A stretch of 64,000 nucleotides of DNA from Candidatus Omnitrophota bacterium (GTDB taxonomy: Bacteria > Omnitrophota > Gorgyraeia > Gygaellales > JAQTUX01), in NCBI GenBank assembly GCA_028707125.1, contig JAQTUX010000001.1, positions 394,375 to 458,374 on the forward strand. Reading direction: 5' to 3'. The stretch's first letter is position 1. Each line of letters opens with the position of its first letter. Positions 1 to 34,658 of the stretch are shown piece after piece. The notes beneath the pieces were generated by a model that made no database searches, had not been told where the DNA came from, and saw only the letters and a program-made list of their open reading frames with translations. The translations under genes and the position numbers were made by a program.

Positions 1-826
1 CGATTCGATCGTTTTCGGCACGGGGTTGGAGTTTAAGGATACTATAACGCAGCAGCTTGAGGGCTTATTGAACAGAGGCCGGACTTCTCCTTACTGCGAA
101 GTGATAAACGGAGGCGTGGGGGACAGCAATCTGGAAGCCGAGTCGCTTCTGATCCAGGAGAAGATGGATATTCTGAAGCCGGATATTATTTTGCTGGGGG
201 TTTATTTAAACGATCTTTCTCCTCCCGCCGGTTATCTGAAGGGCATGGATATATACCGCAATCATCTGTTGTATAAGTGCCATCAGGTAAAATGGATCAG
301 AGAGAGCAATATCTGGAATTACGCGCTGAAGGGATTGGAGCGCAGGATAAACAGCGCCATGCTTTTTGCTTATATCTCCGGTAATATACGGCACCTTTGG
401 GTGATAGATTACAACGGGCGCGAATGGTTAGAAGACCCCGCGGAATTTAAGAATTTGGTATATAAGGCGCGCTATGATTGGGGCATGGCCTGGGACGAAG
501 GCCTGTGGGGCAGAGGGTTCGGCCTCATTAAGCAAATACAGGGCATCTGCAGCTCCAGGAACATCAAATTCGCGGTGGTCATACTGCCTGTTGAACCCCA
601 GGTATTATTTAAAGGCGATCTTCCCGTAATAAGGAAACCGCAGGATATGCTCGCTGCTTTTCTGGGGGATATGCGCATACCTTGTCTGGATATGTTGAGC
701 GTACTGCGCGTTCATAAAGACGAGCGTATCTTTTATGACCATTGCCATTTTACTCCGTTTGGCGCATCGTTGGTCGCCGGGGAGATCAGCGCTTTTCTTG
801 AAGGGATAGACGGATATGCCGGCTGA
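1..826 (+). CDS. SGNH/GDSL-family hydrolase (5' partial; reading frame continues upstream of window, block I 'DSIVFGTG' is encoded at nt 2-25)
   Basis: ORF track 26..826 uses TTG, but the same frame is open to nt 2 and encodes D-S-I-V-F-G (GDS block I); block III 'GVYLNDL'; block V 'YDHCHFTPFG' (DxxH). Stop overlaps next start (ATGCCGGCTGA). Confidence 0.55.
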   Translation, partial: DSIVFGTGLEFKDTITQQLEGLLNRGRTSPYCEVINGGVGDSNLEAESLLIQEKMDILKPDIILLGVYLNDLSPPAGYLKGMDIYRNHLLYKCHQVKWIRESNIWNYALKGLERRINSAMLFAYISGNIRHLWVIDYNGREWLEDPAEFKNLVYKARYDWGMAWDEGLWGRGFGLIKQIQGICSSRNIKFAVVILPVEPQVLFKGDLPVIRKPQDMLAAFLGDMRIPCLDMLSVLRVHKDERIFYDHCHFTPFGASLVAGEISAFLEGIDGYAG

Positions 827-1850
827 ATTAAGGAAAGGTATCCATAATTCCGTGCTCGCGGTATTTGTTTTATTGATTTCCGCGCTGATACTATACCTTG
901 GCCTGGAGGTATTCTTTACCCTGAAGGGTGAATACGGCCTCGAGCAATTTATTGTCGGCGACTCTCGCTGGAATGCCGATGTAAAGAACGGCGTGCATAT
1001 GGCCTTTTCGCTTTCCTCAAATCCCGGCCTGGGCTGGGAATTAAAGCCGGCGGAACTGATAAATAAATATGACAGGTTTGAGGAGAAGGCGAGGGAGAAG
1101 GCTCCGGGCGTGTTCAGGATAATCGCCATCGGAGATTCTATCGCGCAACAGGGGTATTTTGAGAGGTTCCTGGAGGACAGGTTAAATGAGGACGCGCTGG
1201 GCATGCGTTTTGAGGTCTGGAACTGCGGGGTATCCGGATACAATATAACCAATTATTATTACTATTTCAGGGACATAATACCTAGATTCAAACCGGATTT
1301 CATCATACTGGCTTTATGTCTGAATGATTTTAGCGGGATCAATTTAACCATCCATGATGGGAAGCGGTTCGTGGAGTTCTTCAACCCTTTTATTGCCCTA
1401 GATTTTCCTTTCAGCAGCCGTCTTTTCCTGCATTCCAGGGTCTACCGGTTTATCGTATTCGGCCTGGAGCGCTATATACTTGAAAGGGCGAGTATGGAAG
1501 AGATCCTTGTCGGGAAATTCGACAAGATGCTTCAACTGGCCAATGAGAGGAACCTGAAGATCGTGGCCCTGATCTGGCCGCATATGAAGAATCAATATGA
1601 CAGCGCACAGCAGGATGAACACATCCGGATCAGGCATATTCTGGAAAGCGGGGGCGTTCCCTACGCTGACATGCACAAAAGCTTTACAGACAGGGACGCC
1701 CCCGGCTTGAAAGAATACCCCGGGGATTATGTCCACCCTTCAGAAAAGGCATTTATGATGATGTCTGAAGATATATACGATTTCGTATCCGGCTATTTGG
1801 AAGATAATTTTAATTTTTCATTCCACCAGAAAGGAAGGCGTGCGTCATGA
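816..1850 (+). CDS. Membrane-anchored SGNH/GDSL hydrolase or acyltransferase
   Basis: N-terminal TM helix; block I 'FRIIAIGDSIAQQGY', block II 'WNCGVSGYN', block III 'LALCLNDFSG', block V 'GDYVHPSEKA'. Confidence 0.65.
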   Translation: MPAELRKGIHNSVLAVFVLLISALILYLGLEVFFTLKGEYGLEQFIVGDSRWNADVKNGVHMAFSLSSNPGLGWELKPAELINKYDRFEEKAREKAPGVFRIIAIGDSIAQQGYFERFLEDRLNEDALGMRFEVWNCGVSGYNITNYYYYFRDIIPRFKPDFIILALCLNDFSGINLTIHDGKRFVEFFNPFIALDFPFSSRLFLHSRVYRFIVFGLERYILERASMEEILVGKFDKMLQLANERNLKIVALIWPHMKNQYDSAQQDEHIRIRHILESGGVPYADMHKSFTDRDAPGLKEYPGDYVHPSEKAFMMMSEDIYDFVSGYLEDNFNFSFHQKGRRAS

Positions 1851-7622: not shown

Positions 7623-8993
7623 ATGCATAATAGATCTGCGCGATCAATTTCTTTAGTATTTCCTATGTACAATGAGAAGGACTACCTTCCTGTCGCCGTA
7701 GAGAAGGCCAGGAAGGTATTAGGCGAACTGACTGATAATTACGAGGTAATAATAGTAGATGACGCCTCAACGGACGGCTCCGGTGAAATGGCGCGGGAAC
7801 TGGCAAGGAATGATGAAAAGATAAGGGTATTAAGGCACAAAAAGAACAGCCGGCTGGGATGCGCGCTTAAGACCGGTTTTAATAACGCCAGGGGCGGCAT
7901 AGTGGTTTATTCCGATATGGATCTGCCGTTTGACCTGGAGAACATTAAGCGGTTCATCCCGCTTTTAGACGAGGCGGATATAGTCGTGGGCCGGCGGATC
8001 GGAAGCAGGGATTCCCTGTTAAGGTCGTTGTATTCTAAGGCGTATAACGGCCTGATAAGGGCGGTGTTCGGCATAAAGGTAAGCGATGTCAACTTCGCCA
8101 TGAAAATATTTAAAAGAGATATCCTGGACCTGTTAGAGTTAAAGTCCGACGGCTCATTTATAGATGCGGAGCTCCTGATCAGGGCCGTGCGTTTGGGCTA
8201 CATAGTGAAGGAAGTAGAGGTCGCCTATCGCGCCAGGCAATACGGCGTATCGCACCTGTGTTCCCTGCCGGTAATATTCAAGATCATCGCGGAAATGGTT
8301 AAATTGCTTCCTGAGTTAAAGGGATTATCAAGAGAGAGGATGCTGTATATCAAGGCGAAGCGCCTGTATAAAGGCCGCGGGTTTAAGGTCTTAATGCACA
8401 ATGCCGTCAGATATCATACCTGTCCTTTTGGCAGGATAATAAGATTGCTTCCCGAAGAGGGTAAATTCCTGGATCTGGGGTGCGGCAACGGATTCTTTAC
8501 AAACATTATCGCCATCGGAGGCAAAAGACGCAATGTGGCCGGCATTGACATTGATAAACGTAAGATAGATCTCGCCCTGGCTTTAAGAGGCAATAGCCGT
8601 AGCGCGGAGTTCCTGCGGGGGGATCTGGCCTCGCCGGATTTCATGCTGCCTGATGAGGCCTATGACTGCATTACATTGGTAGACGCGTTGTATTTATTGC
8701 CCTATCCTCAGCAGGAGGGCCTGCTCAGGGATTGTTTTGATAGCCTGTCTCCGGGAGGTATTCTAATAATAAAAGAGATGGCTAAGAGGCCGATGTTCAA
8801 GTTTTTATTTAATCTTATTCAGGAGACCATAAGCGTAAAGATAGTAAAGAGCACAATGGGCGGTAGATTCTATTTCAGGAAAGAACAATCTTATTTAGGC
8901 CTGCTTAAAGAGATAGGTTTTAATACGCAAAGTATTCATTCAGGCAGCGGATATCTTCATCCCCATCTTATATTCTTATCCAGGAAGCCGTGA
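7623..8993 (+). CDS. Bifunctional: polyprenyl-phosphate sugar synthase-like GT2 (DPM1/ArnC/GtrB-like) fused to class I SAM-dependent methyltransferase
   Basis: 'SLVFPMYNEKDYL...YEVIIVDDASTDGS...VVYSDMDLPFD' (DxD); C-terminal 'FLDLGCGNGFFT' SAM motif I. Confidence 0.7.
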   Translation: MHNRSARSISLVFPMYNEKDYLPVAVEKARKVLGELTDNYEVIIVDDASTDGSGEMARELARNDEKIRVLRHKKNSRLGCALKTGFNNARGGIVVYSDMDLPFDLENIKRFIPLLDEADIVVGRRIGSRDSLLRSLYSKAYNGLIRAVFGIKVSDVNFAMKIFKRDILDLLELKSDGSFIDAELLIRAVRLGYIVKEVEVAYRARQYGVSHLCSLPVIFKIIAEMVKLLPELKGLSRERMLYIKAKRLYKGRGFKVLMHNAVRYHTCPFGRIIRLLPEEGKFLDLGCGNGFFTNIIAIGGKRRNVAGIDIDKRKIDLALALRGNSRSAEFLRGDLASPDFMLPDEAYDCITLVDALYLLPYPQQEGLLRDCFDSLSPGGILIIKEMAKRPMFKFLFNLIQETISVKIVKSTMGGRFYFRKEQSYLGLLKEIGFNTQSIHSGSGYLHPHLIFLSRKP

Positions 8994-11212
8994 AGAAAAC
9001 AATAGTCCTTATTCATCCCCCCGTTGATTTGGGCCAGCGATATGGGTGGCTGGCATTTGCCGGAGGAATAGAGCCGCCGTTAGGGCTGTGTTTCCTGGCT
9101 GCCGCCTTGAGAGAAAGGGGGTTCAGGGCAGCGATCGTTGACGCGCAGTCGCTGGGATTGGATATAGAGGATACGTTGAATCTCGCCTCGCGATACGATC
9201 CGGATTACATCGGGATAACTTCGGTTACCTCCACGATCTCATCCGCTATGAAGCTGGCGGAGGGCGTTAAGAAGATGCTTCCGCGCGCAAAGGTCATATT
9301 GGGAGGATGCCATGTCAGCGCGCTTGCGGAGCAGGCCATGCGGCAATGCGCTTGTTTTGATATTGGGGTCCTGGGGGAGGGGGAGGCGACCTTGAGCGAA
9401 TTACTGGAGGCGTTGGAGGGCGGCAAAGAGTTGTTTTCAGTGGACGGCATCGTTTTCCGGCAAGGCGGTCAGTTGTTTAAAACCGCCCCGAGAAGGCGGA
9501 TCGATGATATAGATACGCTTCCCTTCCCGGCGTTTGACCTGCTTCCCGGGATAAACAGCCATTACCGTGTTCCGCTCCAAAGCAGGGCAGGCGGCCATTC
9601 CTTTTCACTTATAGCTTCGCGCGGCTGCAGGGGAAGATGCGTTTTTTGCGATAGAGGCGTTTTCGGCAATCATCTCCGGCTTAACAGCGCAGAGTATATA
9701 GTGGATATGGTAAGATACATATATAAAAGAGGCGTCCGTTGCCTTATTTTCGAAGACGATGATTTCCTGGTTTCCAGTAGCAGATTGGCAAGGTTCAGAG
9801 ACCTGATCAGAAGGGAGGGCATTGATATATCCTGGTCCTGTTGCACCCGCATGGATACGTTTGACAAAGACACCCTGCGGATCGCTAAAGACGCCGGGTG
9901 CTGGCAGATAATGGCAGGCATAGAAAGCGCGGAACAGGCCATCCTCGATTTCAGCAATAAAGAGTTGAACTCAGAGATCGTGAGGGGCAAAATAAATCTT
10001 GCGAAAGAATCCGGAATTCAGATAAAGGCCTTCTTGATGTTCGGCAACCCCGGAGAGACCGCAGAGAGCTTAGCGAAGACCACGGATTTCGTCCTCGGGC
10101 TGCCTTTAAGCGATATAAGCATTACATTTTTTACTCCGTTTCCCGGGGCCGATATCTGGAAAAACATCGGTGACTACGGCAGTATAATTCAAAGTTTTGA
10201 CCGGTTTAATTGTTTTGAGCCGGTGTTCCTGCCCAAAGGTATCAGTAAGGATGTTTTGATGAAGTATTATGCTTCAGCCCTGTGCAGATTTTATTTGCGC
10301 CCTCAGATCATAAGGAATTACCTGCGCAGGATAATGCCGTCCGGTACGGCAGCCAGGCCCGGCCATAAAGAAAAACGCCTTATTGTCAGCGCGCATGATT
10401 TTGGCCTGAGCAAGGGCGTAAACGACGGCATTATAGATTCGTTTAAAAAAGGCATAGTTACTAACGCGTCTGTTATTTCCTGCGGGAAATATTCCTCCGA
10501 AGCAATAAATTTCCTTAAAGCCAATCCTGATTTGAAGGCGGGAGTGCATTTATGTTTAACCGAGGAAAGGCCGATCCTGCCCGGCAGCGAAATACCCAGT
10601 CTTATTATGAATGACGGGAGGTTCAGGAGATCAAAGTGGCGGTTGCTTGCCGCCTGTATTTCAGGCAGGATCAAGGCCGGCGATATTGAAAGGGAATTTC
10701 AGGCGCAGATAGCCAGGGTTAAGAGGGAAGGGGTAGAGATCAGCTATCTGGACGGGCATTGTTATGCGCATATGTTACCCGGGATAACGGATATCGTAGC
10801 GCGCCTCGCGCAGAAATATAATATCTCCGGAATACGCCTGCCCCATCAGTCCTTTTGGCTTATTGTTAAAGAAGCCGAAAGCAATAATCTTTCCAGAGTC
10901 ATTTTCCAAATATTGTTGAATTTACGATGTATAATATTAAGGAAACGGTGGAGGCGGTTGGGTTTTTATGATACGGATGATTTTATGGGTTTTGTCAGCA
11001 GCGGTCATTTAACGGAGAATAGACTGTTGAAATTGTTGAGGTCGTTAAAAGGCGGGGTCACGGAGGTGATCTCGCACCCTGCGGACGCCGATGATGAGAT
11101 GCAGAAGGGATATCGGGGATGGAGATATGACTGGGAAGCGAACAAGCAGGCGCTGGTATCCAGCCGCGTAAAGGACGCGATCTCAAAAGGGGGGATAGGG
11201 CTTGGAGCTTGA
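8990..11212 (+). CDS. Trifunctional fusion: B12-binding domain + radical SAM domain + YdjC/ChbG-family carbohydrate deacetylase domain (HpnJ+HpnK-like)
   Basis: GTG start overlapping upstream TGA (GTGA); N-terminal B12-binding Rossmann-like region; 'IASRGCRGRCVFCDRG'; C-terminal 'LIVSAHDFGLSKGVNDGIIDSF...HLCLTEE' YdjC-like. Confidence 0.7.
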   Translation: MKKTIVLIHPPVDLGQRYGWLAFAGGIEPPLGLCFLAAALRERGFRAAIVDAQSLGLDIEDTLNLASRYDPDYIGITSVTSTISSAMKLAEGVKKMLPRAKVILGGCHVSALAEQAMRQCACFDIGVLGEGEATLSELLEALEGGKELFSVDGIVFRQGGQLFKTAPRRRIDDIDTLPFPAFDLLPGINSHYRVPLQSRAGGHSFSLIASRGCRGRCVFCDRGVFGNHLRLNSAEYIVDMVRYIYKRGVRCLIFEDDDFLVSSSRLARFRDLIRREGIDISWSCCTRMDTFDKDTLRIAKDAGCWQIMAGIESAEQAILDFSNKELNSEIVRGKINLAKESGIQIKAFLMFGNPGETAESLAKTTDFVLGLPLSDISITFFTPFPGADIWKNIGDYGSIIQSFDRFNCFEPVFLPKGISKDVLMKYYASALCRFYLRPQIIRNYLRRIMPSGTAARPGHKEKRLIVSAHDFGLSKGVNDGIIDSFKKGIVTNASVISCGKYSSEAINFLKANPDLKAGVHLCLTEERPILPGSEIPSLIMNDGRFRRSKWRLLAACISGRIKAGDIEREFQAQIARVKREGVEISYLDGHCYAHMLPGITDIVARLAQKYNISGIRLPHQSFWLIVKEAESNNLSRVIFQILLNLRCIILRKRWRRLGFYDTDDFMGFVSSGHLTENRLLKLLRSLKGGVTEVISHPADADDEMQKGYRGWRYDWEANKQALVSSRVKDAISKGGIGLGA

Positions 11213-12868: not shown

Positions 12869-13882
12869 ATGAAGAGACTGACGGTTAGGCTGGCGCTGGT
12901 CCTGTTCGGGATAGCAGCCGGCATATTTATCTGCGAGTCATTCCTGCGCGTCAATCCGGCATATAGATCCAAATATGGCCTGTTTAGTTTTAAGACCTCC
13001 GAGAAATTGTCGGATATATATAGAGACATAAAATACAGGCCTTCCCCAATATACGGCTATGAATTTATTCCCAACAGCGCTGTCAACGTCAACTCTTATG
13101 GATTATGCGGCCCCGAATATATCCTTAAAAAAGGCAGGGACGTATTCCGGATCCTGTTAATAGGCGATTCCATCGCGGCTCAAGACGGCACAGCCAGATT
13201 CTTGGAGAGCCGTCTTAACACACGGCCCATTCATCCCGGATATAAATATCAATTATGGAATACAGGAGTGCCTTCCTATGATCTGCGCAGGTACGCCCTC
13301 GTTTTGAAGCATAAGGGTTTGGCCTATAAGCCGGATATGGTAATGGTATTTTTCTGCTACGGAGACCTTGATATAGACAGTTCGTTTTACTGCAGGGGCA
13401 AAGAGGGCGCTGTGTATAGATACAATATCTCTCTGCCGGAGCTGACCAAGCAGCGCATACCGAATTATCTCTTATTGAAACATTCTTATCTCTATAGATT
13501 TCTAATTTTTCAGGCAGAGTCATATCTGTCCGGCAAGAAATCCTCCATCGGCAATTCCGGCAGAGAGGATGCAGCTCTGACATACCTGTCTGCCATAAAA
13601 GCCCTCTGCGTTAAGAACGACCTGTATTTATTGGGGGTGGTGTTCCCGTCTCTTAAGCCCGCGGCGGAATATTCGGCGTTAGAGAGGGAGCATTTTGTCA
13701 TCTTGCGCGACACAATGGATGTTCTGGGTATCGATTATATAGATTTATGCGGGCTTATACCCGAAGAAAAGAGGGCGGCGATCAGGGAGAGAAGGGATGA
13801 TGTCTTCCATCCCTCTTCCGAAGGGCAGGGCCTTATCGCCGATATTATCTATGAATATATCAAGGTCCATTTCAAAGGATAG
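12869..13882 (+). CDS. Membrane-anchored SGNH/GDSL hydrolase or acyltransferase
   Basis: 'FRILLIGDSIAAQDG', 'WNTGVPSYD', 'RRDDVFHPSSEGQG'. Confidence 0.6.
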   Translation: MKRLTVRLALVLFGIAAGIFICESFLRVNPAYRSKYGLFSFKTSEKLSDIYRDIKYRPSPIYGYEFIPNSAVNVNSYGLCGPEYILKKGRDVFRILLIGDSIAAQDGTARFLESRLNTRPIHPGYKYQLWNTGVPSYDLRRYALVLKHKGLAYKPDMVMVFFCYGDLDIDSSFYCRGKEGAVYRYNISLPELTKQRIPNYLLLKHSYLYRFLIFQAESYLSGKKSSIGNSGREDAALTYLSAIKALCVKNDLYLLGVVFPSLKPAAEYSALEREHFVILRDTMDVLGIDYIDLCGLIPEEKRAAIRERRDDVFHPSSEGQGLIADIIYEYIKVHFKG

Positions 13883-19423: not shown

Positions 19424-20470
19424 ATGATTATAAGGATTAAAGAACTGCTTAAGAATATATCGCTGGCTGCCGCATCTTCTTTTATTGTTTTGTTTATAAT
19501 TAATTATTTTGTGGGTATATTCTTTGATAAAGAGATCTCCAGGGTGCAATGGGCGCAGGACCATACGGTAAGATTAAGGATGTCGGATAACCCCGAGATA
19601 ATGTTTGAGGCCACCCCTAATATAGGGGAGGCAAACAGCCAGGGGCTGAGGGATTTTGAGTATAGTTTTAAGAAGCCCAATGGCACACGCAGGATCGCGG
19701 TAATCGGTGATTCCATATCCTATGGTATAGGAGTTGAAGTAGAGGAGTCATGGCCTAAGCAGCTGGAAAAGAAATTGAATGAAGATAACGCCGGCGCCAG
19801 ATTTGAGGTCATAAATTTTTCCGTTCCCGCTTATTCAACCGTGCAGGAAGCGGAGGTCCTGAGGACCAAGGCGGTAAAATATGACCCGGACCTTGTCATC
19901 ATAGCGGCCTTTGAGAATGATAACGCCATTTACAGTTCGGAGATGAATAAAATATTTTCCAGTGAAGCGTCTCCGGATTATTTTGACAGCGTGCATGTTT
20001 TGTTCGACCCCGGGCTATCCGGCTTTCAAAGGTCTATCTACAGCAGCAGCCTCGGAAAGTTTATCAGGTACAGGCTTGCCCTGCTGAAGGATTCTGGTTT
20101 AAATAGATCAGGTATCCTGAGATATCCCAGCCCCGGCAGACATATAAGATATATCAGCGAATATTACAACGACGTTGATGTTATCGGTTCGGGCTTTAAG
20201 AAGATAAGTTCAGTACTCAGAAAGCACAGGCTGCCTTGCCTGGTAGTATTTTTCAGTCATACGGAAAACACGGTTGTCCGCGATAAGATCAGCGGGATAT
20301 GCCGGGAAAACAGCATCGCCTTTATGGATACAATGCACCTTTTTCCATACAAAGAAGAGGACATCAAGGGAAGTTATTATATAGATAACTGCCATCTGAC
20401 GCCGTATGCCCATGCGCTTTATGCCGATGAGGTTTATCTGAGATTGAGATCAATGGGGGTCGCGGGATAG
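19424..20470 (+). CDS. Membrane-anchored SGNH/GDSL hydrolase or acyltransferase
   Basis: 'RRIAVIGDSISYGIG', 'INFSVPAYST', 'IDNCHLTPYAHA'. Confidence 0.6.
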   Translation: MIIRIKELLKNISLAAASSFIVLFIINYFVGIFFDKEISRVQWAQDHTVRLRMSDNPEIMFEATPNIGEANSQGLRDFEYSFKKPNGTRRIAVIGDSISYGIGVEVEESWPKQLEKKLNEDNAGARFEVINFSVPAYSTVQEAEVLRTKAVKYDPDLVIIAAFENDNAIYSSEMNKIFSSEASPDYFDSVHVLFDPGLSGFQRSIYSSSLGKFIRYRLALLKDSGLNRSGILRYPSPGRHIRYISEYYNDVDVIGSGFKKISSVLRKHRLPCLVVFFSHTENTVVRDKISGICRENSIAFMDTMHLFPYKEEDIKGSYYIDNCHLTPYAHALYADEVYLRLRSMGVAG

Positions 20471-20485
20471 GGACTGACCGCTATT

Positions 20486-22048
20486 ATGGACCGGTTTGTA
20501 TTCAGACAGAAGATAGTGTATGTTTTAGCCGGCATAATGCTGGCCTTAGCCGCCCTTGAGCTGGGTATGCGCATAACAGGCAAGGTCCTAAGTTATAGAC
20601 AAAACAGGCGCAACACAATGGCATTACAGCGCAGTGGCGCATACCGCATTTTATGCCTGGGCGAGTCCACCACCGCGGGGCAGTGGCCGCTTTTCCTGGA
20701 AGAGATGCTTAATGAGAAGAAAACAGGGCTGAAATTTACGGTGATAGATAAGGGCGTCCCGGGGACCAACACCGGTTTCATAGTATCTATGCTGGAAGAG
20801 AATATTGACCGGTATAAACCCGATATGGTGATCACCATGATGGGGGCTAATGACGTTTGGACCAATATAGTATACAGGGGCACCCTGGCTGTGAGGACGG
20901 AGATATTTCTTAAAAATTTCAGGATATATAAGCTATTCAGAATATTAGCGGTGAATATTGCCGGGAAGATCCAGATAAGGCATGACGTAAAAGAGGCGGC
21001 CACTGCCCCGGTCCCCGAACATGATTACCTGAAATTGGCCGGTTCCTATGAGGCGCAAGGGCAATATGGCGAAGCGATCGCCATGTACCGCAAGGCCATC
21101 GAGGCCGATCCGGATAATAGCCGCATATATCAGACGTTAGGCATGCATTATCGTGAACAGGAAAAATACGAAGAGGCCGAACGCGTCCTGCAACGAGCCA
21201 TTGAAATCGACCCGCGTAATGATTATGCGTATGTAGAGCTGGGGCGTTGTTATCTGGAGAGAAAGATGTGGGATAAGGGGATACCGGTATTGGAAAAGGC
21301 CATAGATATTAATCCTCGTGAAACATACGCTTATTTATTCCTGGGCATGGCCCTTAATGAGCTGCAGCAATGCGATAAGGCGATAGGGATATTAAAAGGC
21401 GCGCTGAACAGCGATCCGGATAATGTGTTTGCGCTGGAGGCGCTTGCGATATGCTCTGAGGGCCCGGGGTTATTCAAGGAACGGGAATACGCGTTTAAGA
21501 GATTGATAGCCCGTAATCACAGGGCCGCCTGGGCTTATGTTGAGCTGGGGCGCAGTTATGGCAAGCAGGGCAGGTTTGCCGAAGAGAGGGCTTTATATGA
21601 GAGTGGTATCGAGTCGTATCAGCGAAAAGACTTCCTCTACCGCCTGATCGCGTTATCTTTTGAGAAGGAAGGAAGACATAATATGGCAAGAAGGTATTTT
21701 AATATGGCCGCGGAGATGTCGATGAAACAGTATGATCATATAATGGCGCAGAATTATCGGCTCCTGAAAGATATCGTTAAAAGCAGGGGATTGCAGCTGG
21801 TATGCGTGCAATATCCAATGCGCAGCGCAGAGCCGTTAAAGGCGATGTTTGAGGTTACCGAGGGGGTTATTTTCGCAGATAATGAGAAAATATTTAAAGA
21901 CGCTGTAGCGGCAGGCGGATATGGGGAATATTTTGTAGATAATTTCGGCGGCGACTTCGGCCATTGCACCGATAAAGGCAACCGCCTGTTAGCCGGGAAT
22001 ATAGCCGATACCATAGAAAGGGAATATTTCAGTGGAATGCCGCGATAG
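20486..22048 (+). CDS. SGNH-family enzyme with ~6 TPR repeats inserted between block III and block V
   Basis: TM helix; 'YRILCLGESTTAGQWP' (block I, GES), 'KGVPGTNTG' (II), 'MMGANDVW' (III), TPR-like repeats 'AIAMYRKAIEADPDN...', then 'GGDFGHCTDKGNRLLAGNIA' (block V DxxH). Confidence 0.6.
   Translation: MDRFVFRQKIVYVLAGIMLALAALELGMRITGKVLSYRQNRRNTMALQRSGAYRILCLGESTTAGQWPLFLEEMLNEKKTGLKFTVIDKGVPGTNTGFIVSMLEENIDRYKPDMVITMMGANDVWTNIVYRGTLAVRTEIFLKNFRIYKLFRILAVNIAGKIQIRHDVKEAATAPVPEHDYLKLAGSYEAQGQYGEAIAMYRKAIEADPDNSRIYQTLGMHYREQEKYEEAERVLQRAIEIDPRNDYAYVELGRCYLERKMWDKGIPVLEKAIDINPRETYAYLFLGMALNELQQCDKAIGILKGALNSDPDNVFALEALAICSEGPGLFKEREYAFKRLIARNHRAAWAYVELGRSYGKQGRFAEERALYESGIESYQRKDFLYRLIALSFEKEGRHNMARRYFNMAAEMSMKQYDHIMAQNYRLLKDIVKSRGLQLVCVQYPMRSAEPLKAMFEVTEGVIFADNEKIFKDAVAAGGYGEYFVDNFGGDFGHCTDKGNRLLAGNIADTIEREYFSGMPR
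21791..22020 (+). repeat. ~230-nt segment with high nucleotide identity to 30774..31003 (3' ends of the two SGNH-TPR paralogs)
   Basis: e.g. 'aagctggtatgcgtgcaatatccaatgcgcagc' vs 'aagctggtatgcgtgcagtatcctatgcgcagc'; '...ggcgacttcggccattgcacc...' vs '...ggtgacttcggccactgcacg...'. Confidence 0.6.
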
Positions 22049-23444: not shown

Positions 23445-23477
23445 ATGACGGCGTTTTAAAATGACGGCTAATATACC

Positions 23478-25541: not shown

Positions 25542-25546
25542 AGACC

Positions 25547-26347: not shown

Positions 26348-26354
26348 AAAGCCG

Positions 26355-27194: not shown

Positions 27195-27195
27195 G

Positions 27196-28425
27196 ATGAA
27201 TGATGACACGCTTAAATTAGTTATAGTCGGCCATGTGGACCACGGCAAATCTACGTTAATAGGCAGGCTGCTGTTTGATACCGGCTCGTTGTCTAAAGAT
27301 AGGATCGAGGAAATAGAAAAGACCTCAAAGGAATTAGGCAAAGAGTTTGAACTCGCCTTCCTGACGGATCATCTTAGGGAAGAAAGGGAAGGGGCCAGGA
27401 CTATAGATACTACACAGGTTTTCTTTTCCGCCGGCAAGAGGCATTACGCCATAATTGACGCGCCCGGGCACGTTGAGTTTATAAAAAATATGATCACAGG
27501 CACAACGCATGCGGACGTCGCGATCTTAGTGGTGAGCGTAAAGGAAGGGGTAGAAGAGCAAACCAGGAGGCATGCCTATTTACTGAAAATGTTAGGCATA
27601 AGGAATCTGATCGTTGCCGTGAACAAAATGGATATGGTTGATTATAGCCGGTCCGAGTTTCTGGCGGTTAAGAGGAAGACGGAGGAATTACTGTCCTTGA
27701 TCGGTATTGCTGCCCTGGATATCATCCCCATATCTGCCAGGGAAGGAGATAATATTATCAGTGATTCAAGGCGAATGCTTTGGCACAGAGGCCGTTCTTT
27801 GCTGGAGGTGTTAGATGGGGCAGGTTTAGACGCGTTTACCGGCAGCGGGATCCTACGCCTTCCGGTACAGGATATGTATAGCATGGGAGATAAAAAGCTC
27901 TATGTCGGCAGGGTGGAATCCGGAGAACTCAATGAGAAGCAATCGGTATTGGTTCTTCCTTGCAATAAGATGGTAACTGTGGAATCAATTCATAAATTTA
28001 AGAAGAGAATACGCAGGGCGGGCATAGGCGAATGCGTTGGTTTTATTCTTAAAGAACCGGTAATTATCAGCCGCGGCGAGGTTATTTGCGGGGAAAAAGA
28101 TGCCCCCGCGATTACCCGGCGTTTTAAGGCTGTCATATTTTGTATGTCCAACGGGCCTCTTAAAGTTGATGAAGAACTGGTCTTTAAGTGCGTTACTCAG
28201 GAGGTTTTATGCCGGGTTGAAAAGATAGAAAGAAGGATTGATCCCTCTTCGTTGAGGTCATCAGGAAATGACGCGAAGTGCCTGGAATACGCATTGGCGG
28301 GAGAGGTCAGCATAAAGACAGAGCAGCCCGTAGTTATTGATGATTTTCGCAGAGTCAGCCGATTAGGAAGATTCATCTTGGAAAAAGAACACGATGTAGT
28401 GGCCGGAGGAATAGTAACTTATTGA
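27196..28425 (+). CDS. cysN: Sulfate adenylyltransferase subunit 1 (GTPase), no APS-kinase domain
   Basis: 'LKLVIVGHVDHGKSTLIGRLL', 'DAPGHVEF', 'NKMD'; ATG 27196 lies 1 nt after TSUP stop (ORF track 27160 overlaps). Confidence 0.8.
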   Translation: MNDDTLKLVIVGHVDHGKSTLIGRLLFDTGSLSKDRIEEIEKTSKELGKEFELAFLTDHLREEREGARTIDTTQVFFSAGKRHYAIIDAPGHVEFIKNMITGTTHADVAILVVSVKEGVEEQTRRHAYLLKMLGIRNLIVAVNKMDMVDYSRSEFLAVKRKTEELLSLIGIAALDIIPISAREGDNIISDSRRMLWHRGRSLLEVLDGAGLDAFTGSGILRLPVQDMYSMGDKKLYVGRVESGELNEKQSVLVLPCNKMVTVESIHKFKKRIRRAGIGECVGFILKEPVIISRGEVICGEKDAPAITRRFKAVIFCMSNGPLKVDEELVFKCVTQEVLCRVEKIERRIDPSSLRSSGNDAKCLEYALAGEVSIKTEQPVVIDDFRRVSRLGRFILEKEHDVVAGGIVTY

Positions 28426-28458: not shown

Positions 28459-29487
28459 ATGTCTAAACTGATCATCAGTTTTACCCGCCAGTTATCCACC
28501 CTTGTCAAGGCAGGCATTCCGCTCCTGCGCGCCCTGCAGATAATCGCCCCCCAGGTCCAGGACAGGCGCTTCAGGAATGCGGTTGAGCAGGTCCTTATTG
28601 ACGTGGAAGAGGGCAAAAGCCTGTCAGAGGCGCTGTCGCTGCACCGCAGGTATTTCTCTAATTTCTACATAAATATGATAAAGGCCGCGGAGGTCAGCGG
28701 CAACTTGGCCGCGGTATTGAAAGAACTCTCCGATTATCTCGTGCAGAACAGGAAACTTTTAAACAGCGTGCGTTCCGCGATGATGTACCCGATCTTCGTT
28801 TTGTTTATGTCCGTAAGCATCCTGGCGATCATAATGGTTTTCGTCATACCTACCTTGACAAAGATCTTCGCGGATCTGGGCGGAGACCTGCCTCCGGCAA
28901 CCAAGCTTCTTATAGGGATGAGTAATTTTATTGTTGAATGGGGATACTTATTCCTTCTGGGGCTTGTTCTTTTCGGCTTTTTTATTTTCTTTATGTCCAG
29001 AAAACCCGCCCTAAGCAGGATTCTAAATGCCTGGAAGTGGAAATTCCCTGTATTAGGCGATATATTGAAGATGGTCACCATCGGAAGATTTTGCCGCACC
29101 CTCGGCACCCTGCTTTCATCAGGAGTAACTATTTTAAAGGGGCTGGAGGTGTTGAGGGAAACCACTATATCTCCTTTGGTGGAAGATGCCCTGGCTTATA
29201 TTTATGAAAAGGTGGAAGGGGGCACTAATCTTTCCGATGCCATGGAAGAAACGGGGGTTTTTCCCCTTACCGTAGTAAAGATGGTGGGTATCGGAGAGGA
29301 GAGCGGCAAGGTTTCCGGCTTGCTTCTGGAAATAGCCGAGGACTATGAAGACGAGGTCTCTACAGCGTTGACCGGTTTTATATCGCTTCTTGAACCTCTC
29401 TTGATAGTGGTGATGGGCGTGATCATCGGATTTATCGTGATATCTTTATTCTTCCCCATATTTACCATGGGAGAGCTGGTAAAATAG
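28459..29487 (+). CDS. gspF: Type II secretion / type IV pilus platform protein GspF/PilC family (short form, 342 aa)
   Basis: Two T2SSF repeats: 'FTRQLSTLVKAGIPLLRALQII' and 'FCRTLGTLLSSGVTILKGLEVL'; 3 TM. Confidence 0.65.
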   Translation: MSKLIISFTRQLSTLVKAGIPLLRALQIIAPQVQDRRFRNAVEQVLIDVEEGKSLSEALSLHRRYFSNFYINMIKAAEVSGNLAAVLKELSDYLVQNRKLLNSVRSAMMYPIFVLFMSVSILAIIMVFVIPTLTKIFADLGGDLPPATKLLIGMSNFIVEWGYLFLLGLVLFGFFIFFMSRKPALSRILNAWKWKFPVLGDILKMVTIGRFCRTLGTLLSSGVTILKGLEVLRETTISPLVEDALAYIYEKVEGGTNLSDAMEETGVFPLTVVKMVGIGEESGKVSGLLLEIAEDYEDEVSTALTGFISLLEPLLIVVMGVIIGFIVISLFFPIFTMGELVK

Positions 29488-29515
29488 CGCGCTCCCTCCT
29501 TCATAAGCACGGTTC

Positions 29516-31021
29516 TTGTCAGAGGATATGCAGAGAACTCCCCCCTCAAAGATAACGCTTCGGCAGAAAATAATGTTGGTGATGTTTGGGCTTGCTCTTT
29601 TTATTCTATTGCTTGAACTGAGCTTACGGCTTGGCAGTTGTATTTTGTCATCTTTTCAGGAATACAGAAACAGGGTTACTTTGAGGCAAAAAGGCGCATA
29701 CCGTATCATGTGTTTAGGAGAGTCAACCACTGTGTTGGGAGGCAGCAACGCCTATCCCTATCAACTCGAGAGAATATTGAACCGGCAGGCAACAGGCATA
29801 AGGTTCAGCGTGGTAAATAAGGGATTGGGAGGGGACAATACCGCGGATATACTAAGCGATCTGGAGGAAAAACTTGACAGATACAAGCCGGATATGATCA
29901 TCGCGATGATGGGCATAAACGATGGCGGGCAGCATATGCGCTATAAAGAAACGCCTGGATCAGGGAGATTATTCTTGAGGTATTTCAGGACGTATAAATT
30001 AGCCAGGATCGCCTGGATGCATATCATGGCCATGGTGAAGGGCGCGGCCGGGCCCAGGGCGTTTCTCAGCCCGAAAGAGTGTTATGCCGAAAGCCCCGGC
30101 TCTATGTCCGATTATAATAGATATGTGGAGGCGGGAAGATTATATATAAAAAAGGACGATTATGCCGGGGCGGAAGACATGTTTGAGAAGGCGCTTGAAC
30201 TGGATCCCGCGGATCCGGGTTTATATATGGAATTAGAGATATGTTATAATAAACAGGGCAAGTTTTCCGACGCGGAGAGGATGTTCACAAAGGCAATAGA
30301 AATCGACCCCGGAAATTACTCCATATATATAGGATTAGGCGTATTTTACAGGGATCAAGGTAATCTTGAAGAGGCCAAGAATATATTGAACAGGGCGATT
30401 GGATTAGAACCGGATTGCCCGGATGCTTATATTGAACTGGCCTGGTGCTATAAGGATAACACGGCGGATGAGCTGCTAAAGAAGGCAATCGAATTGGATA
30501 CCCTGAATTATGATACCTATATAAGTTCCGGTATGCTGTATAAGTACCATAATAACTATATCAAGGCCGAAAGCATGTTTAAGAAGGCGGTCGCGCTGGA
30601 CCCGGATAATGAACAGGGGCATATCTGGCTGGCTGTCTTATACAGCCAGACGGGGAAAGATGATCTGGCGGCAAGATATTACAAGGCAGCGCATCAATTG
30701 AGGGATGAGTATTATAATTCTATGACTTACCGCAATTACCAGGAGCTTAAGAGCATTGTAGACAGAAGGGGCATTAAGCTGGTATGCGTGCAGTATCCTA
30801 TGCGCAGCATAGAGCCGCTGAAAAGAATATTTGAATATCAGGACGGCATTATATTTGTAGACAATGAGAAGATATTTAAGGACGCGGTAGGCAGGGACGG
30901 CTATGGCGTTTATTTTGGGGATAGTTTTGCCGGTGACTTCGGCCACTGCACGCCCGAAGGCAACAGGCTTCTGGCCGAAAATATAGCATTCGTGCTGTTA
31001 AAAGAGTATTTTAATAAGTAA
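29516..31021 (+). CDS. SGNH-family enzyme with inserted TPR array (paralog of 20486..22048)
   Basis: 'YRIMCLGESTTVLGG', 'KGLGGDNTA', 'MMGINDGG', TPR repeats, 'AGDFGHCTPEGNRLLAENIA'. Confidence 0.6.
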   Translation: MSEDMQRTPPSKITLRQKIMLVMFGLALFILLLELSLRLGSCILSSFQEYRNRVTLRQKGAYRIMCLGESTTVLGGSNAYPYQLERILNRQATGIRFSVVNKGLGGDNTADILSDLEEKLDRYKPDMIIAMMGINDGGQHMRYKETPGSGRLFLRYFRTYKLARIAWMHIMAMVKGAAGPRAFLSPKECYAESPGSMSDYNRYVEAGRLYIKKDDYAGAEDMFEKALELDPADPGLYMELEICYNKQGKFSDAERMFTKAIEIDPGNYSIYIGLGVFYRDQGNLEEAKNILNRAIGLEPDCPDAYIELAWCYKDNTADELLKKAIELDTLNYDTYISSGMLYKYHNNYIKAESMFKKAVALDPDNEQGHIWLAVLYSQTGKDDLAARYYKAAHQLRDEYYNSMTYRNYQELKSIVDRRGIKLVCVQYPMRSIEPLKRIFEYQDGIIFVDNEKIFKDAVGRDGYGVYFGDSFAGDFGHCTPEGNRLLAENIAFVLLKEYFNK

Positions 31022-31067
31022 ATATTTTATTGTATACTTATTCAACGCGCCATTTCTATTATAAGGT

Positions 31068-31442
31068 TTGTTTATGATAAGCAGGCATAAGGCTATTTTC
31101 GGGTTTACCTTAATAGAGATAATAATCTCCCTGAGCATCCTTGCCCTGGGGCTTGTGTCTCTGTTTAATTTTTTCCCCGTAGGTTTAACCGCGTTAAGGT
31201 ACGCGCGTAGAGTTAACGATATCGCCCTGTTCGCGCAGAAGCAGCTTGAGCATATCAAGACATTCCCGGATACGACTGAATTATCGGGGGAGGCGGAGAA
31301 CTTTACCTGGCAGATGGCCAGGGCGCCGTTGGACCTGGAGGAGGGCATAAAGGTTACCGTCGTAGAGTTAAAGATAGATTATGAATTCGGAGGGAGCGCC
31401 CTTGAAGAAAGATTTGTCACTTATCTGGACGCGCAGGAATAA
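31068..31442 (+). CDS. Minor pseudopilin (GspI-like) with prepilin cleavage/methylation motif
   Basis: 'HKAIFG|FTLIEIIISLSILALG' (G/F cleavage site, E at +5), 124 aa. Confidence 0.65.
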   Translation: MFMISRHKAIFGFTLIEIIISLSILALGLVSLFNFFPVGLTALRYARRVNDIALFAQKQLEHIKTFPDTTELSGEAENFTWQMARAPLDLEEGIKVTVVELKIDYEFGGSALEERFVTYLDAQE

Positions 31443-31446
31443 GGGA

Positions 31447-34400
31447 ATGAATAACAAAGGGCAGGCGATATTTCTGGTGCTGGGCATACTGACTATCTTA
31501 TTTATAGTGGGCGTGACAATGTTTTATTTTACGCAGAGAGAGCGCGCCGCGGCAGTAAGGTTTGTTGAGAGCGTGCGTTCTCAATACGCGGCAGAGGCGG
31601 GGGTTGTGTATGCCAGGAATATCCTCAGGCAGGATAAGAAGCAGAACGCCGTTGACGGGTTCAACGATAAGCAGTTCACCTTTTTTAAGGGTGAGGATCA
31701 TGATGTAGATAAGGACGGGATAAACGAAAGCCGCTGGCTTACCTTGCGGGACGCGAATAACGGCGAATTCGCGAGGGTCGCCGTGTTGGTTTCCGACGAG
31801 GCGGGCAAGGTCAATATAAATACCGCGGGTACCGGGGTCGCGGCCGGAAACGGGGTCAATCTGTATGAGGTCAACCTGAGCGGTTTACTTTCGGCTATAG
31901 GGCTGCCCGCGCAGCTGGCGGGGGAGATAATCTCCTACCGGCTGGGCCCAAACGGCCTTCCCGGAGACGCGGGCGTAGATGACAATGGCAATAATTATCT
32001 GTTTGAAAATAACGGCTGGGACGACGACAGCGACGGGGTTGTTGATGAAAAAGGCGAAGGCGTGGATGAAATGCAGGAGTGCGATCCCTTTTACGTATAT
32101 GGGGACGACAGGGTCTGGGGCATACCTGAGGGGGTTTCCCGCATCGAGCTCGATCCTTTGGCATTGGATTTAGATAAGGCATTGCGCTACGTCACATCTT
32201 ACTCCAGGGATTATGAGGTCGGCTTGAACGGTTCGCGCCGCCTTTCCTTAAGAGGCGCGAGGGCGCAGGATGTGCTTGAGGCGTTCTTAAGCGCGGGGGT
32301 CACTAATGCCTATAAAAGCGCGGCCGATTTTGTGGACGCGTTCGATCCCGACCTTTCCCAGGCCTATATTGATAAATATTATTTTAAGATACAGCCTTCG
32401 GGCCTGGTCAATCCGGGCGGATGGGTAAGCGCGGGGGGTTCTTACATGGCCCAGGCCGGTTCGGCGGAAGGGGTGTTCCGCTGGCAGAACCTGCCTTTGG
32501 CAGACGGTGAATATTACTGCTCTTTGTACGGCAACCCCTCCTCTGTGTATATCGGCGATGTGGTTTATCCCGACGGTAAGGTTGACGCTGACCTGCGCCA
32601 TATGGCGGTATTGATAAAGAAGGTAACGGTATCCGGAGGCTCTTTTGAGTTAACAATAAGGCCCCATAAGGAAAAGATCTCTTATCTTTCCACCGCTGAG
32701 CTTTCTCTCACGCAGTCAAAACAGGGGCTCAGCCGCGCCAAGATCGCTGGCCGCGAGGCGATAGTCATTAATGAGATCATGCCCAATCTTTCCGTTGAGG
32801 CGTCTGTTTCCGCGAATGACGCTCCGGGAGGCGATTGGATATTTGAGGGAGATTATTTCAAGAATGCCGTACACGAGGGCGGCAAAGCAGGGGAAGGCAA
32901 ATGGGTATTTGAAGAGATAAGGCAGGGTTATTATTATCTGCGGCTTTTGGGCCTGGCGAGTTCGCTTGTGGGAGACGTTTCTTGCGGCGGGGAAAATGCC
33001 TCCGGCGTTATTTCCGGCGACTATCTTCCTGAGCCCGTCTATGTGGGAGGAGACGGAGAATTAAACGTATATATACAGAATAATTCTACGAATCAGACCG
33101 CCTATTTCAAGGGCATCATGCTTACTCAACAGCCGGACGCCGAATACATAGAGCTGCTTAATCTATCCGGCAAGGAGATCGATCTGAGTAATTTTGTGGT
33201 CGAGGTGTATGATAACAAGGGGCAGCTTGCCGTGGGGTATCCCGCGGAGATACCTTCTAATACCGCCATCGGCTCTTACGAATATCTGGTCCTGGCTGTT
33301 GACGCCAAAGATACAAGCCCGGAAGGCCTGAAGAATAACGGCCTGAGCTTTAAGTCCGTCTGGGGCTCCGAGGCGGCAGGCCTTGAGTTTGATAAGACGG
33401 TCAATGCCGGCTACGACCTTATTCCCGACGGGGGCGGCAGCATAATGCTTAAGACGCCGGAGGGATCGGCGGTTGATTCGGTTGAATATGTTTCCGCGGG
33501 CAACTTTGTAGCCCTTGAGCGTTCAGACCCTACCGCCGACTACGACAGCGACGCGGACGGAAAATTTGACGGCTGGTTTAACTGCCTGGATAAAAAAGGC
33601 GGCACACCGGGCGCGGAGAACGACAACAGCGATATGTATGATACCGACCCGTCTACGGGAAAGCCGTACAAACACAGCATAGACGAAGTGGGCGTATTCA
33701 ATCGTTACATCTATAATATAGCCGATTTTGTTAATCTGTCTTCCGGCTCCAGATGGCAGAAAAGGGCGGTTTATGATCTGGCAAAAATAGCGGATAAGTT
33801 TTCCGTGAATTCTTTGGATCTGGCGCTTGCGGGCAATTTTGTTGAAGGCGATTGGCGGCTTAAGTCGGGTATGTTTATTCCCAATCAAACAGGTTCAAGA
33901 GGGCTCTGGCGATGGGATAAGGTCCCCGCGGGGACATTTGATCTGAGGGTGATGGGCGAAGAACAGGGCCACCCTAATTTTATAAAGGTGGGCATCAAGA
34001 TCGGCGAGGAAGGCGAATTCATATCTTCCTCTTCGTTATTGATAGAGAACGGCCAGGCATATTACGGCAAGATCGCGGTGCCCGCGGCTACTTCTCTGGA
34101 GATGGAGATAACGGACAACTCATCGGAGTTGATAGGGTTTAATTACCTTATTATCGAGCCCCTGTATGAGGTCGGCGGCAGGATAAATATAAATACAGCG
34201 CCGGTTGAGGTCCTGGGGGCGCTGTCCCTGTCTTCTTCAGCGATAGACAATATTTTGATCAACAGGCCGTTCGGGGAAGAAGACGCGAGGAAATTAGGTA
34301 CGGGCGAATTGCTTATATCCGATACTTTAGGTGTAAGCGATGAAGAAAAATTAGAGAGTTTTAGACTGATAAGTAATTTGATAACCGTAAAATCGGATAT

Positions 34401-34491
34401 GTATAAGATAGTAAGCGCGGGTGAGGGCATTAAGGAAGGTAAGGCAAGCGGCATAAGCCAGGTAGTAACCGCGGTGGTGCAGAGGCAGTAA
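31447..34491 (+). CDS. Giant GspK-like pseudopilin-associated protein (~1014 aa) with lamin-tail-like domain and acidic Asp-rich repeats
   Basis: N-terminal TM 'NNKGQAIFLVLGILTILFIV'; GspK signature 'VSDEAGKVNINTA' and C-terminal 'GGRININTAPVEVLGAL'; LTD-like 'AEYIELLNLSGKEIDLSNFVV'; 'DDNGNNYLFENNGWDDDSDGVVDEKGEGVDE'. ORF track start 31381 overlaps upstream gene. Confidence 0.5.
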   Translation: MNNKGQAIFLVLGILTILFIVGVTMFYFTQRERAAAVRFVESVRSQYAAEAGVVYARNILRQDKKQNAVDGFNDKQFTFFKGEDHDVDKDGINESRWLTLRDANNGEFARVAVLVSDEAGKVNINTAGTGVAAGNGVNLYEVNLSGLLSAIGLPAQLAGEIISYRLGPNGLPGDAGVDDNGNNYLFENNGWDDDSDGVVDEKGEGVDEMQECDPFYVYGDDRVWGIPEGVSRIELDPLALDLDKALRYVTSYSRDYEVGLNGSRRLSLRGARAQDVLEAFLSAGVTNAYKSAADFVDAFDPDLSQAYIDKYYFKIQPSGLVNPGGWVSAGGSYMAQAGSAEGVFRWQNLPLADGEYYCSLYGNPSSVYIGDVVYPDGKVDADLRHMAVLIKKVTVSGGSFELTIRPHKEKISYLSTAELSLTQSKQGLSRAKIAGREAIVINEIMPNLSVEASVSANDAPGGDWIFEGDYFKNAVHEGGKAGEGKWVFEEIRQGYYYLRLLGLASSLVGDVSCGGENASGVISGDYLPEPVYVGGDGELNVYIQNNSTNQTAYFKGIMLTQQPDAEYIELLNLSGKEIDLSNFVVEVYDNKGQLAVGYPAEIPSNTAIGSYEYLVLAVDAKDTSPEGLKNNGLSFKSVWGSEAAGLEFDKTVNAGYDLIPDGGGSIMLKTPEGSAVDSVEYVSAGNFVALERSDPTADYDSDADGKFDGWFNCLDKKGGTPGAENDNSDMYDTDPSTGKPYKHSIDEVGVFNRYIYNIADFVNLSSGSRWQKRAVYDLAKIADKFSVNSLDLALAGNFVEGDWRLKSGMFIPNQTGSRGLWRWDKVPAGTFDLRVMGEEQGHPNFIKVGIKIGEEGEFISSSSLLIENGQAYYGKIAVPAATSLEMEITDNSSELIGFNYLIIEPLYEVGGRININTAPVEVLGALSLSSSAIDNILINRPFGEEDARKLGTGELLISDTLGVSDEEKLESFRLISNLITVKSDMYKIVSAGEGIKEGKASGISQVVTAVVQRQ

Positions 34492-34538: not shown

Positions 34539-34570
34539 TTATTAGACAGAGCAGTTAAACAGGCAAAGAA

Positions 34571-34599
34571 GCCCCAAAGCGATTTGGGGTTTTTTGTTT
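34571..34599 (+). terminator. Rho-independent terminator-like hairpin (CCCCAAA-gcgat-TTTGGGG + T-run)
   Basis: 7-bp perfect stem 34572-34578/34583-34589 followed by TTTTTTGTTT. Confidence 0.5.
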
Positions 34600-34658
34600 A
34601 TTGAGGCGAGGGCGCCCTTTTTAAGCGATGTTACGCTTAGAAAGGGTGTTTTATTTTT

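Follow-up and report, generated by a model that had tools for sequence, protein, structure and literature searches.

In Salmonella Typhi, the SGNH-like O-acetyltransferase of the Vi antigen, TviD, contains a region of tetratricopeptide repeats (TPRs) through which it associates with the membrane and binds TviE, the polymerase (PMC8760489). For alginate, a complex for modification and secretion has been reported that pairs AlgK, a TPR protein, with AlgX, an SGNH protein (PMC9734138). Here, we describe a gene that combines the two types of domain in a single chain, with the repeats placed inside the catalytic fold. The gene (29516..31021, hereafter the SGNH-TPR gene) is located in a 64,000-nucleotide stretch of DNA (hereafter the window) from a Candidatus Omnitrophota bacterium (GCA_028707125.1, contig JAQTUX010000001.1, positions 394,375 to 458,374), where it stands between a gspF-like gene and a gene for a minor pseudopilin. 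Our analysis confirms that it encodes a membrane-anchored SGNH protein with a TPR array inside the catalytic fold. We find no good evidence that its position between secretion-pilus genes marks its substrate, and we lean towards a role in editing acyl esters of a glycan made by a neighbouring gene cluster.

An SGNH fold interrupted by a TPR array

The protein starts with an N-terminal membrane anchor, followed by an SGNH fold in which about six TPR repeats separate blocks I-III from block V. In the full-length protein, the Pfam family Lipase_GDSL_2 matches residues 66-145 only, which correspond to profile positions 1-83 of 178 (38.1 bits, cut-off 32.9). The SGNH half that is absent from this match is supplied by the C-terminal ~100 residues, which near their end carry the sequence GDFGHCT with the D-x-x-H of block V. 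The catalytic blocks are conserved in an alignment of 24 family members. Block I (G68-E69-S70, at the end of a predicted strand formed by residues 61-68) is invariant in 24 of 24 sequences, G103 of block II is nearly invariant, and G133, N135 and D136 of block III (G133-I-N135-D136) are invariant. In block V (D474-F-G-H477, nucleotides 30935-30946), D474 is kept in at least 90% of the members and H477 is invariant.

In silico removal of residues 151-397 leaves a core of about 200 residues that matches Lipase_GDSL_2 with 43.4 bits (E 7e-11) and whose match to the related profile Lipase_GDSL reaches position 173 of 208. With hhalign, this TPR-deleted core aligns end to end with a non-TPR SGNH paralog encoded in the window at 816..1850 (probability 97.5%, E 8e-12), a protein that has an insert of ~40 residues exactly at the TPR site. 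A core profile built from 16 sequences retrieves SGNH/GDSL esterases from the PDB, including 7DDY (E 1.7e-6) and the Geobacillus acetyl-xylan esterase Axe2 (E ~1e-5). The D..H region of 7DDY aligns with the block V stretch, a short stretch that is not significant on its own.

An AlphaFold2 (AF2) model based on the 24-member alignment (mean predicted local distance difference test score, pLDDT, 80.4) predicts five strands flanked by helices. A helix at residues 15-59 is followed by strands at 61-68, 96-105 and 127-131, a low-confidence linker and 12 TPR helices at 199-397 (pLDDT ~90-97); the chain then continues with a helix at 402-418, strands at 421-425 and 445-448, and the final helices. The protein thus carries every sequence-level feature that defines the SGNH/GDSL superfamily, to which we assign it, and is predicted to adopt its fold. 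The repeats themselves, helix-turn-helix units of 34 residues in tandem, are recognized by TPR_1, TPR_19 and TPR_2 over residues ~200-395 (E 1e-24 to 1e-25; TPR_1, E 2e-25), with several TPR families above their own Pfam cut-offs, and their period is visible in the DNA as five copies with a 102/90-nt spacing (30169-30603). Foldseek searches of the PDB with the full model return TPR proteins exclusively (top matches, a consensus TPR, the TPR region of OGT and MamA), a result that is uninformative on the SGNH subfamily. Given the insert found at the same site in the non-TPR paralog 816..1850, the TPR array represents an expansion at a variable insertion site after block III.

The initial annotation had likened the split architecture to that of a second gene of the window, 20486..22048. 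This is borne out by the Pfam pattern of the two proteins and by their end-to-end BLASTP alignment (37% identity, E 5e-106), a sequence likeness that exceeds chance by far. The closest non-self relative is 44-48% identical to the 29516..31021 protein, indicating that a close ortholog has yet to be sampled. We considered whether the gene arose by a recent duplication of 20486..22048 and rejected this, as the pair is 37-40% identical and homologs from other genomes reach 43-53%.

The public gene call (L085:7782-9071, equivalent to window 29732-31021) is 429 amino acids (aa) long and begins at residue 73, and would therefore drop both the membrane anchor and the catalytic Ser70. Residues 1-72 are kept in all homologs. 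Because of this conservation, we consider the 501-aa open reading frame (ORF) to be the real gene and the public call to be too short.

The hydropathy of the anchor reaches its maximum (2.64) at residues 19-37. Averaged over the 24 family members, the net charge of the 15 residues before the helix is +3.2 and that of the 15 residues after it is +1.2, and the predicted topology that is favoured is N-in/C-out. Within or beside their membrane helix, the SGNH-TPR proteins share an invariant pair of residues, one acidic and, about four positions on, one basic (LLE-x-x-LR; E34..R38, window 29615-29629). Motifs resembling LLE-x-x-LR also occur in non-TPR anchored SGNH paralogs (816..1850 and 12869..13882), and the motif site is found in 20486..22048 as well. 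The pair may thus serve a specific contact within the membrane, either to a lipid-linked substrate or to a partner protein.

Two other readings of the N-terminal region and the repeats were rejected. The sequence LGSC at residues 39-42 could suggest a lipoprotein or pilotin, but C42 is missing in the five other members checked and in the family consensus. A pilotin of the PilF/PilW/Tgl type is not supported either: the NCBIfam PilW model scores 95.3 bits (cut-off 154), a conserved lipobox cysteine is absent, and Foldseek matches to PilF (E 2e-7) rank far below the generic TPR matches.

Table 1. Features of the SGNH-TPR gene, its paralog and the adjoining genes (window coordinates).
Feature	Position	Strand	Description and evidence
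SGNH-TPR gene	29516..31021	+	501 aa; start TTG 29516 or ATG 29528; ORF list, Pfam
N-terminal membrane anchor	29570..29635	+	residues ~19-40; family-invariant E34 and R38; hydropathy, AF2 helix 15-59
SGNH N-terminal half	29696..29926	+	strands 1-3; blocks I-III; Pfam Lipase_GDSL_2, invariant residues, AF2
Nested TPR array	30110..30706	+	residues 199-397; 12 helices, ~6 repeats
SGNH C-terminal half	30719..31006	+	helix 402-418, strands 4 and 5, block V; invariant columns, AF2, hhalign
Paralogous SGNH-TPR gene	20486..22048	+	520 aa; inside the glycan cluster; matching Pfam pattern
gspF/pilC-like platform gene	28459..29487	+	342 aa; Pfam T2SSF E 4e-61; NCBIfam GspF E 1e-96
Minor pseudopilin gene	31074..31442 (start 31068 or 31074)	+	leader MISRHKAIFG/FTLIE (slash, cleavage mark); N_methyl E 7e-5
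Giant GspK-like minor pseudopilin gene with LTD domain	31402..34491	+	~1014-1036 aa; LTD E 3.5e-8; weak T2SSK match
Two strong terminator-like hairpins	34566..34652	+	end the gspF..gspK-like unit

The SGNH-TPR family and its proposed role

A search of a 5.8-billion-protein collection recovers more than 2100 homologs at E<=1e-5, a lower bound since the search scored 8000 candidates only. Nearly all of the top homologs have the conserved N- and C-terminal halves, with a variable number of TPRs. The named homologs come mostly from Omnitrophota metagenome-assembled genomes (MAGs), some are labelled Patescibacteria or Elusimicrobiota, and their public names are merely 'tetratricopeptide repeat protein' or 'PilF'. 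The family is without an NCBIfam model of its own; the only matches there are to generic TPR models and lie below threshold, the best being PilW. Judged by their sequences, what these generic TPR and 'PilF' labels hide are canonical SGNH enzymes with a repeat array nested in the catalytic fold.

Relatives are encoded in 543 stretches of the GTDB species representatives, and we analyzed the best 78 of these 543 loci together with flanking sequence of at most 10 kb in either direction. At positions +-1 and +-2, 56 of 263 genes are themselves SGNH-TPR paralogs. A bulk Pfam scan of the other 190 neighbours is led by Radical_SAM (13+13), SPASM (6+6), B12-binding and carbamoyltransferase families, PMT_2 (2+4), glycosyltransferases (GTs) of the GT2/GT1 families, methyltransferases and sugar-nucleotide enzymes. 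Neither of the top-25 lists of Pfam families from these 190 neighbours contains a family that belongs to type II secretion systems (T2SS). The SGNH-TPR family is large, uncharacterised and highly paralogous, is centred on Omnitrophota, and travels with genes for envelope-glycan decoration. Tandem arrays of SGNH-TPR genes (L044, L027, L061, L003 and L028) comprise up to seven consecutive ORFs by best-hit label, and runs of at least four by a strict criterion of a full-length, single high-scoring segment pair. Some MAGs hold several such tandem loci.

In the window, the 28-kb cluster upstream of gspF encodes PMT_2-type GT-C enzymes, GT2 and GT4 proteins, DUF2142, an alkaline-phosphatase-family protein and CysDN, together with one SGNH-TPR paralog and four simpler SGNH paralogs. 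When the window GT-C, DUF2142 and other cluster proteins are compared by BLASTP with the 78 loci, few direct homologs are found. One locus (L072, 9815-21965) mirrors window 20486-28425: the latter encodes SGNH-TPR, DUF2142, Phosphodiest, CysD, TauE and CysN, and the former two SGNH-TPR proteins, Wzy_C, GT2, CysD, CysN and three alkaline-phosphatase-family proteins. The two Omnitrophota genomes are unrelated, and in both of them SGNH-TPR genes adjoin genes for CysD, CysN (accompanied in the window by a TauE permease) and alkaline-phosphatase/Phosphodiest proteins. This arrangement points to the sulfate-activation genes being part of the glycan cluster, in which case the cluster would reach as far as gspF, and the glycan may be sulfated or phospho-modified. 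The cluster region also contains a single ORF of 740 aa (8990-11212) in which a B12-binding radical-SAM protein is fused to a YdjC-like domain of the carbohydrate deacetylase family; homologs of its radical-SAM part adjoin SGNH-TPR genes in 13 of the 78 loci.

With modest confidence, we favour a model in which the 29516..31021 product is a periplasmic enzyme acting on the glycan of this cluster. It would be a single-pass inner-membrane protein, with the catalytic part most likely in the periplasm, and an SGNH esterase or acyltransferase with a Ser70-His477-Asp474 triad and an oxyanion hole formed by Gly103 and Asn135. The six-repeat TPR solenoid would occupy the loop after block III, where simpler paralogs have a short helical insert, and may provide a docking surface for a partner enzyme or polymer, a role for which AlgK-AlgX and TviD-TviE are precedents. 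The product of the upstream cluster, a glycan or glycoconjugate, would be the substrate from which the enzyme removes, or to which it transfers, acyl (probably acetyl) esters, and the insertion of its gene beside gspF would not mark its substrate.

Alginate acetylation requires the MBOAT partner AlgI, with AlgK acting as a scaffold. We detected no match to an MBOAT or AT3 acyl-shuttle gene in the 19 window proteins scanned, which include all large membrane proteins of positions 1-35 kb. This argues against a classical periplasmic O-acyltransferase and leaves a hydrolase, or a transferase with an unknown donor; we favour esterase over transferase chemistry with low confidence.

The missing acyl shuttle also weighs against the glycan-editing model as a whole, as do several other observations. 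The predicted topology is read from charge counts, and with a C-terminal flank of 25 residues the charge on both sides of the helix is about equal. The family's commonest non-paralog neighbours, radical-SAM/SPASM enzymes, could indicate that the substrate is a peptide and not a glycan. Finally, the SGNH-TPR gene is on the same strand as gspF and the pseudopilin gene, with gaps of 28 nt and 52 nt and no terminator before 34.6 kb, an arrangement that leaves room for a lineage-specific functional recruitment.

A periplasmic enzyme of this kind could also act on an envelope substrate other than the product of this cluster, such as O-acetylated peptidoglycan (Ape/PatB-like) or membrane lipids and lysophospholipids, possibly those of prey or host cells. 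Although the TPR-deleted core passes the gathering score of Pfam DUF459 (PatB family; 31.3 bits, cut-off 27.2), this lies below its score for Lipase_GDSL_2. It also matches lysophospholipase/TesA-type esterases in the PDB, but generic GDSL esterases, along with an acetyl-xylan esterase, are its best relatives of solved structure. The tandem multi-copy arrays would fit diversification against variable targets, whereas the recurrence of glycan-decoration genes as neighbours, and the lack of a PatA-like MBOAT gene among the window proteins scanned, argue against such a substrate. We regard this alternative as unlikely.

The gspF-pseudopilin unit and its conservation

The gene lies, as the initial annotation stated, between gspF and a GspI-like pseudopilin gene, an arrangement supported by the T2SSF match and the N_methyl motif of the flanking genes (Table 1). 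The window GspF covers positions 66-401 of the 401 positions of the NCBIfam model, and so is without the first ~65 residues of canonical GspF. The minor pseudopilin has a weak match to XpsI/GspI (E 3.6e-5, below the cut-off) and a weak match to PilV, and the N-terminus of the GspK-like protein matches NCBIfam GspK below the cut-off (E 2.5e-10). No terminator comparable to the hairpins at 34566..34652 is found in the gaps on either side of the SGNH-TPR gene (29488-29515 and 31022-31073). Based on the shared strand, the short gaps and the lack of an intervening terminator, it is plausible that the gene is co-transcribed with gspF and the pseudopilin gene in this genome. Promoter-like matches are weak and outnumber those in shuffled sequences throughout, and do not define the transcription units. 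The gene order around the SGNH-TPR gene is identical in an independent Logan assembly (17.8 kb, SRR22315508). A search for target-site duplications or flanking repeats, as signs of an insertion between gspF and the pseudopilin gene, gave nothing convincing; the only real repeat family is the TPR period.

Many orthologs of GspF, ~340 aa in length and 49-59% identical, are found in Omnitrophota, and we examined ten of their loci, selected on GspF identity and length of the contig (L079-L084 and L086-L089; GspF 49-58% identical to that of the window). In all ten, gspF is followed after about 0-155 nt by a small gene and then by a gene for an LTD protein of 777-999 aa, and no SGNH-TPR gene is present. 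The small gene has an N_methyl match in seven of the ten loci. For the first six loci, orthology was established with tblastn, which detects pseudopilin orthologs of 31-39% identity (and one short match of 52%, in L082) and GspK-like orthologs of 33-38% identity over most of their length (full length in L084), and finds no SGNH-TPR gene in L079-L084; for the last four loci, the assignment is based on Pfam only.

The same result is obtained from the other side. Searched by BLASTP with the window proteins as queries, the 78 best SGNH-TPR loci contain no homolog of GspF, the pseudopilin or the GspK-like protein at E<1e-6, and gspF is found within 10 kb of an SGNH-TPR gene in none of the 78. A prepilin-motif scan of these loci finds one ORF, ~4 kb away (L013), and queries from other Omnitrophota T2SS-like modules (GspE, secretin, LTD and others) match only three T2SSE-family ATPases (L014, L024 and L076). 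The SGNH-TPR gene is thus best explained as a lineage-specific insertion into a conserved gspF-pseudopilin-gspK-like unit. The initial annotation had read the adjacency as a physical link between a glycan-tailoring family and the T2SS/type IV pilus (T4P) apparatus, had proposed the pseudopilins or their cargo as the modified substrate, and had suggested conservation of SGNH-TPR genes beside pseudopilin genes as a check, with a lack of this conservation in related genomes as a refutation. The adjacency is not conserved, the position is specific to this lineage, and the comparative data therefore lend no support to the proposed substrate.

It is quite improbable, in our view, that the enzyme has been recruited to the pseudopilus operon to acylate or de-acylate a glycan or acyl adduct on the minor pseudopilin, the giant LTD-containing GspK-like tip protein or a T2SS cargo, with its TPRs docked on the platform. 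The genes of enzymes that modify pilins, TfpO/PilO and TfpW for example, adjoin those for pilins, and the compact, co-directional arrangement with terminators only after the GspK-like gene, reproduced in the independent assembly, would fit such a recruitment, as would the glycan genes that flank a related T2SS-like module in L084 and L089. Against it stand the absence of the gene from 10 of 10 orthologous gspF loci and of gspF from the 78 homolog loci, only four of which have any T2SS/T4P-type gene. The family is moreover highly paralogous, and the 'PilF/PilW' labels of its homologs are generic TPR matches. A survey of Omnitrophota found T2SS/T4P genes flanking 13 of 14 giant-gene loci (bioRxiv 10.64898/2026.06.07.730766), which makes a chance adjacency plausible.

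We likewise see little chance that these membrane-anchored SGNH enzymes form an undescribed class, massively expanded in Omnitrophota, in which the TPR solenoid acts as a lid or docking module by the active site, and that one copy of this class has been captured by the pseudopilus operon and edits glycan acyl esters on the tip pseudopilin or the cargo. Such a capture, if true, would couple surface-glycan tailoring to the type II secretion/type IV filament machine, and a link of this sort between glycan tailoring and pseudopilins would represent a new kind of post-translational control of these systems. The least probable alternative is a peptide substrate bound by the TPR array, with the SGNH domain as an esterase or protease partnered with radical-SAM/SPASM enzymes: TPRs commonly bind peptides, and Radical_SAM and SPASM occur in 26 and 12 of the 190 non-paralog neighbours, respectively, but no precursor-peptide genes or partners typical of ribosomally synthesized and post-translationally modified peptides were identified, the radical-SAM genes of the window are fused to or flanked by sugar-modifying domains (the B12-binding radical-SAM-YdjC protein of 8990..11212), and the remaining recurrent neighbours are glycan enzymes.

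The comparison of gspF loci also outlines a conserved Omnitrophota T2SS/T4P-like module that consists of a short GspF (~340 aa), one or two small pseudopilins and a GspK-like protein of 780-1030 aa with a lamin-tail domain (LTD). Most of the loci continue with a MerR-type helix-turn-helix (HTH) gene and two genes of unknown function (~480-506 aa and ~365 aa), and a secretin gene follows where the contig reaches far enough (L079 and L080). In L084:1-10029 and L089:1-5526 (GspF 49% identical to that of the window), the module comes after Glycos_transf_4 (with GT2/GT4 in L084), GspE and two genes of unknown function, and a gene for a sugar-nucleotidyltransferase follows it, providing a second, independent case of glycan genes flanking a T2SS-like module. 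The module of the window ends with the GspK-like gene; the next genes encode a sigma factor of the extracytoplasmic function type and a porin-like protein, followed by amtB-glnK-glnA. Near glnA (37901-39412) and gltBD, a second glutamine-synthetase-like gene on the reverse strand (47353-48885) has an N-terminal HTH/excisionase-like extension.

Comparison with described SGNH systems

A 2022 review of the 16 SGNH families (PMC9487903) does not describe a TPR array within an SGNH fold; the word 'insertion' does not occur in its text and no mention of TPRs was found there. Recognising the SGNH-TPR family improves the annotation of envelope-glycan loci in an uncultured phylum, and the family offers a natural test case for how an inserted scaffold may redirect an SGNH active site.

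The alginate machinery resembles the system described here in that AlgX, an SGNH-type polysaccharide modifier to which AlgJ and WssI are reported to be related, has been reported in one complex with a TPR protein, AlgK (PMC9734138, PMC4148444). In that system, however, the TPR and SGNH parts are separate proteins, whereas here they form one chain, and no MBOAT or AT3 protein is found among the window proteins scanned. The GDSL/SGNH esterases of known structure, Geobacillus Axe2 (3W7V) and 7DDY, share blocks I-III and the DxxH region with the SGNH-TPR core (E 1.7e-6 to 2e-5), but are soluble single-domain proteins of ~220 aa, without a membrane anchor or a repeat insertion. The non-TPR SGNH paralogs of the window (816..1850, 12869..13882 and 19424..20470) likewise combine an N-terminal membrane anchor with the SGNH blocks and are interrupted at the same site, but by a short helical segment of ~40-100 aa in place of the six-TPR solenoid.

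TviD resembles the 29516..31021 protein in having an SGNH-type catalytic domain and TPRs in one chain, and in being encoded in a surface-polysaccharide locus. The two differ in several respects. The TPRs of TviD follow the catalytic domain, whereas those of the 29516..31021 protein lie within it, between blocks III and V. The active site of TviD is an atypical Cys-His(-Asp) one, and blocks II and III are missing, whereas the Ser, Gly, Asn and DxxH residues are conserved in the SGNH-TPR family. An N-terminal transmembrane anchor is absent from TviD, which was co-purified with TviE, a GT4 polymerase, whereas the protein described here has a signal-anchor helix and is probably periplasmic. On the published description of TviD, therefore, the 29516..31021 protein is not of the TviD type, being set apart by its domain order, its nucleophile and its anchor.

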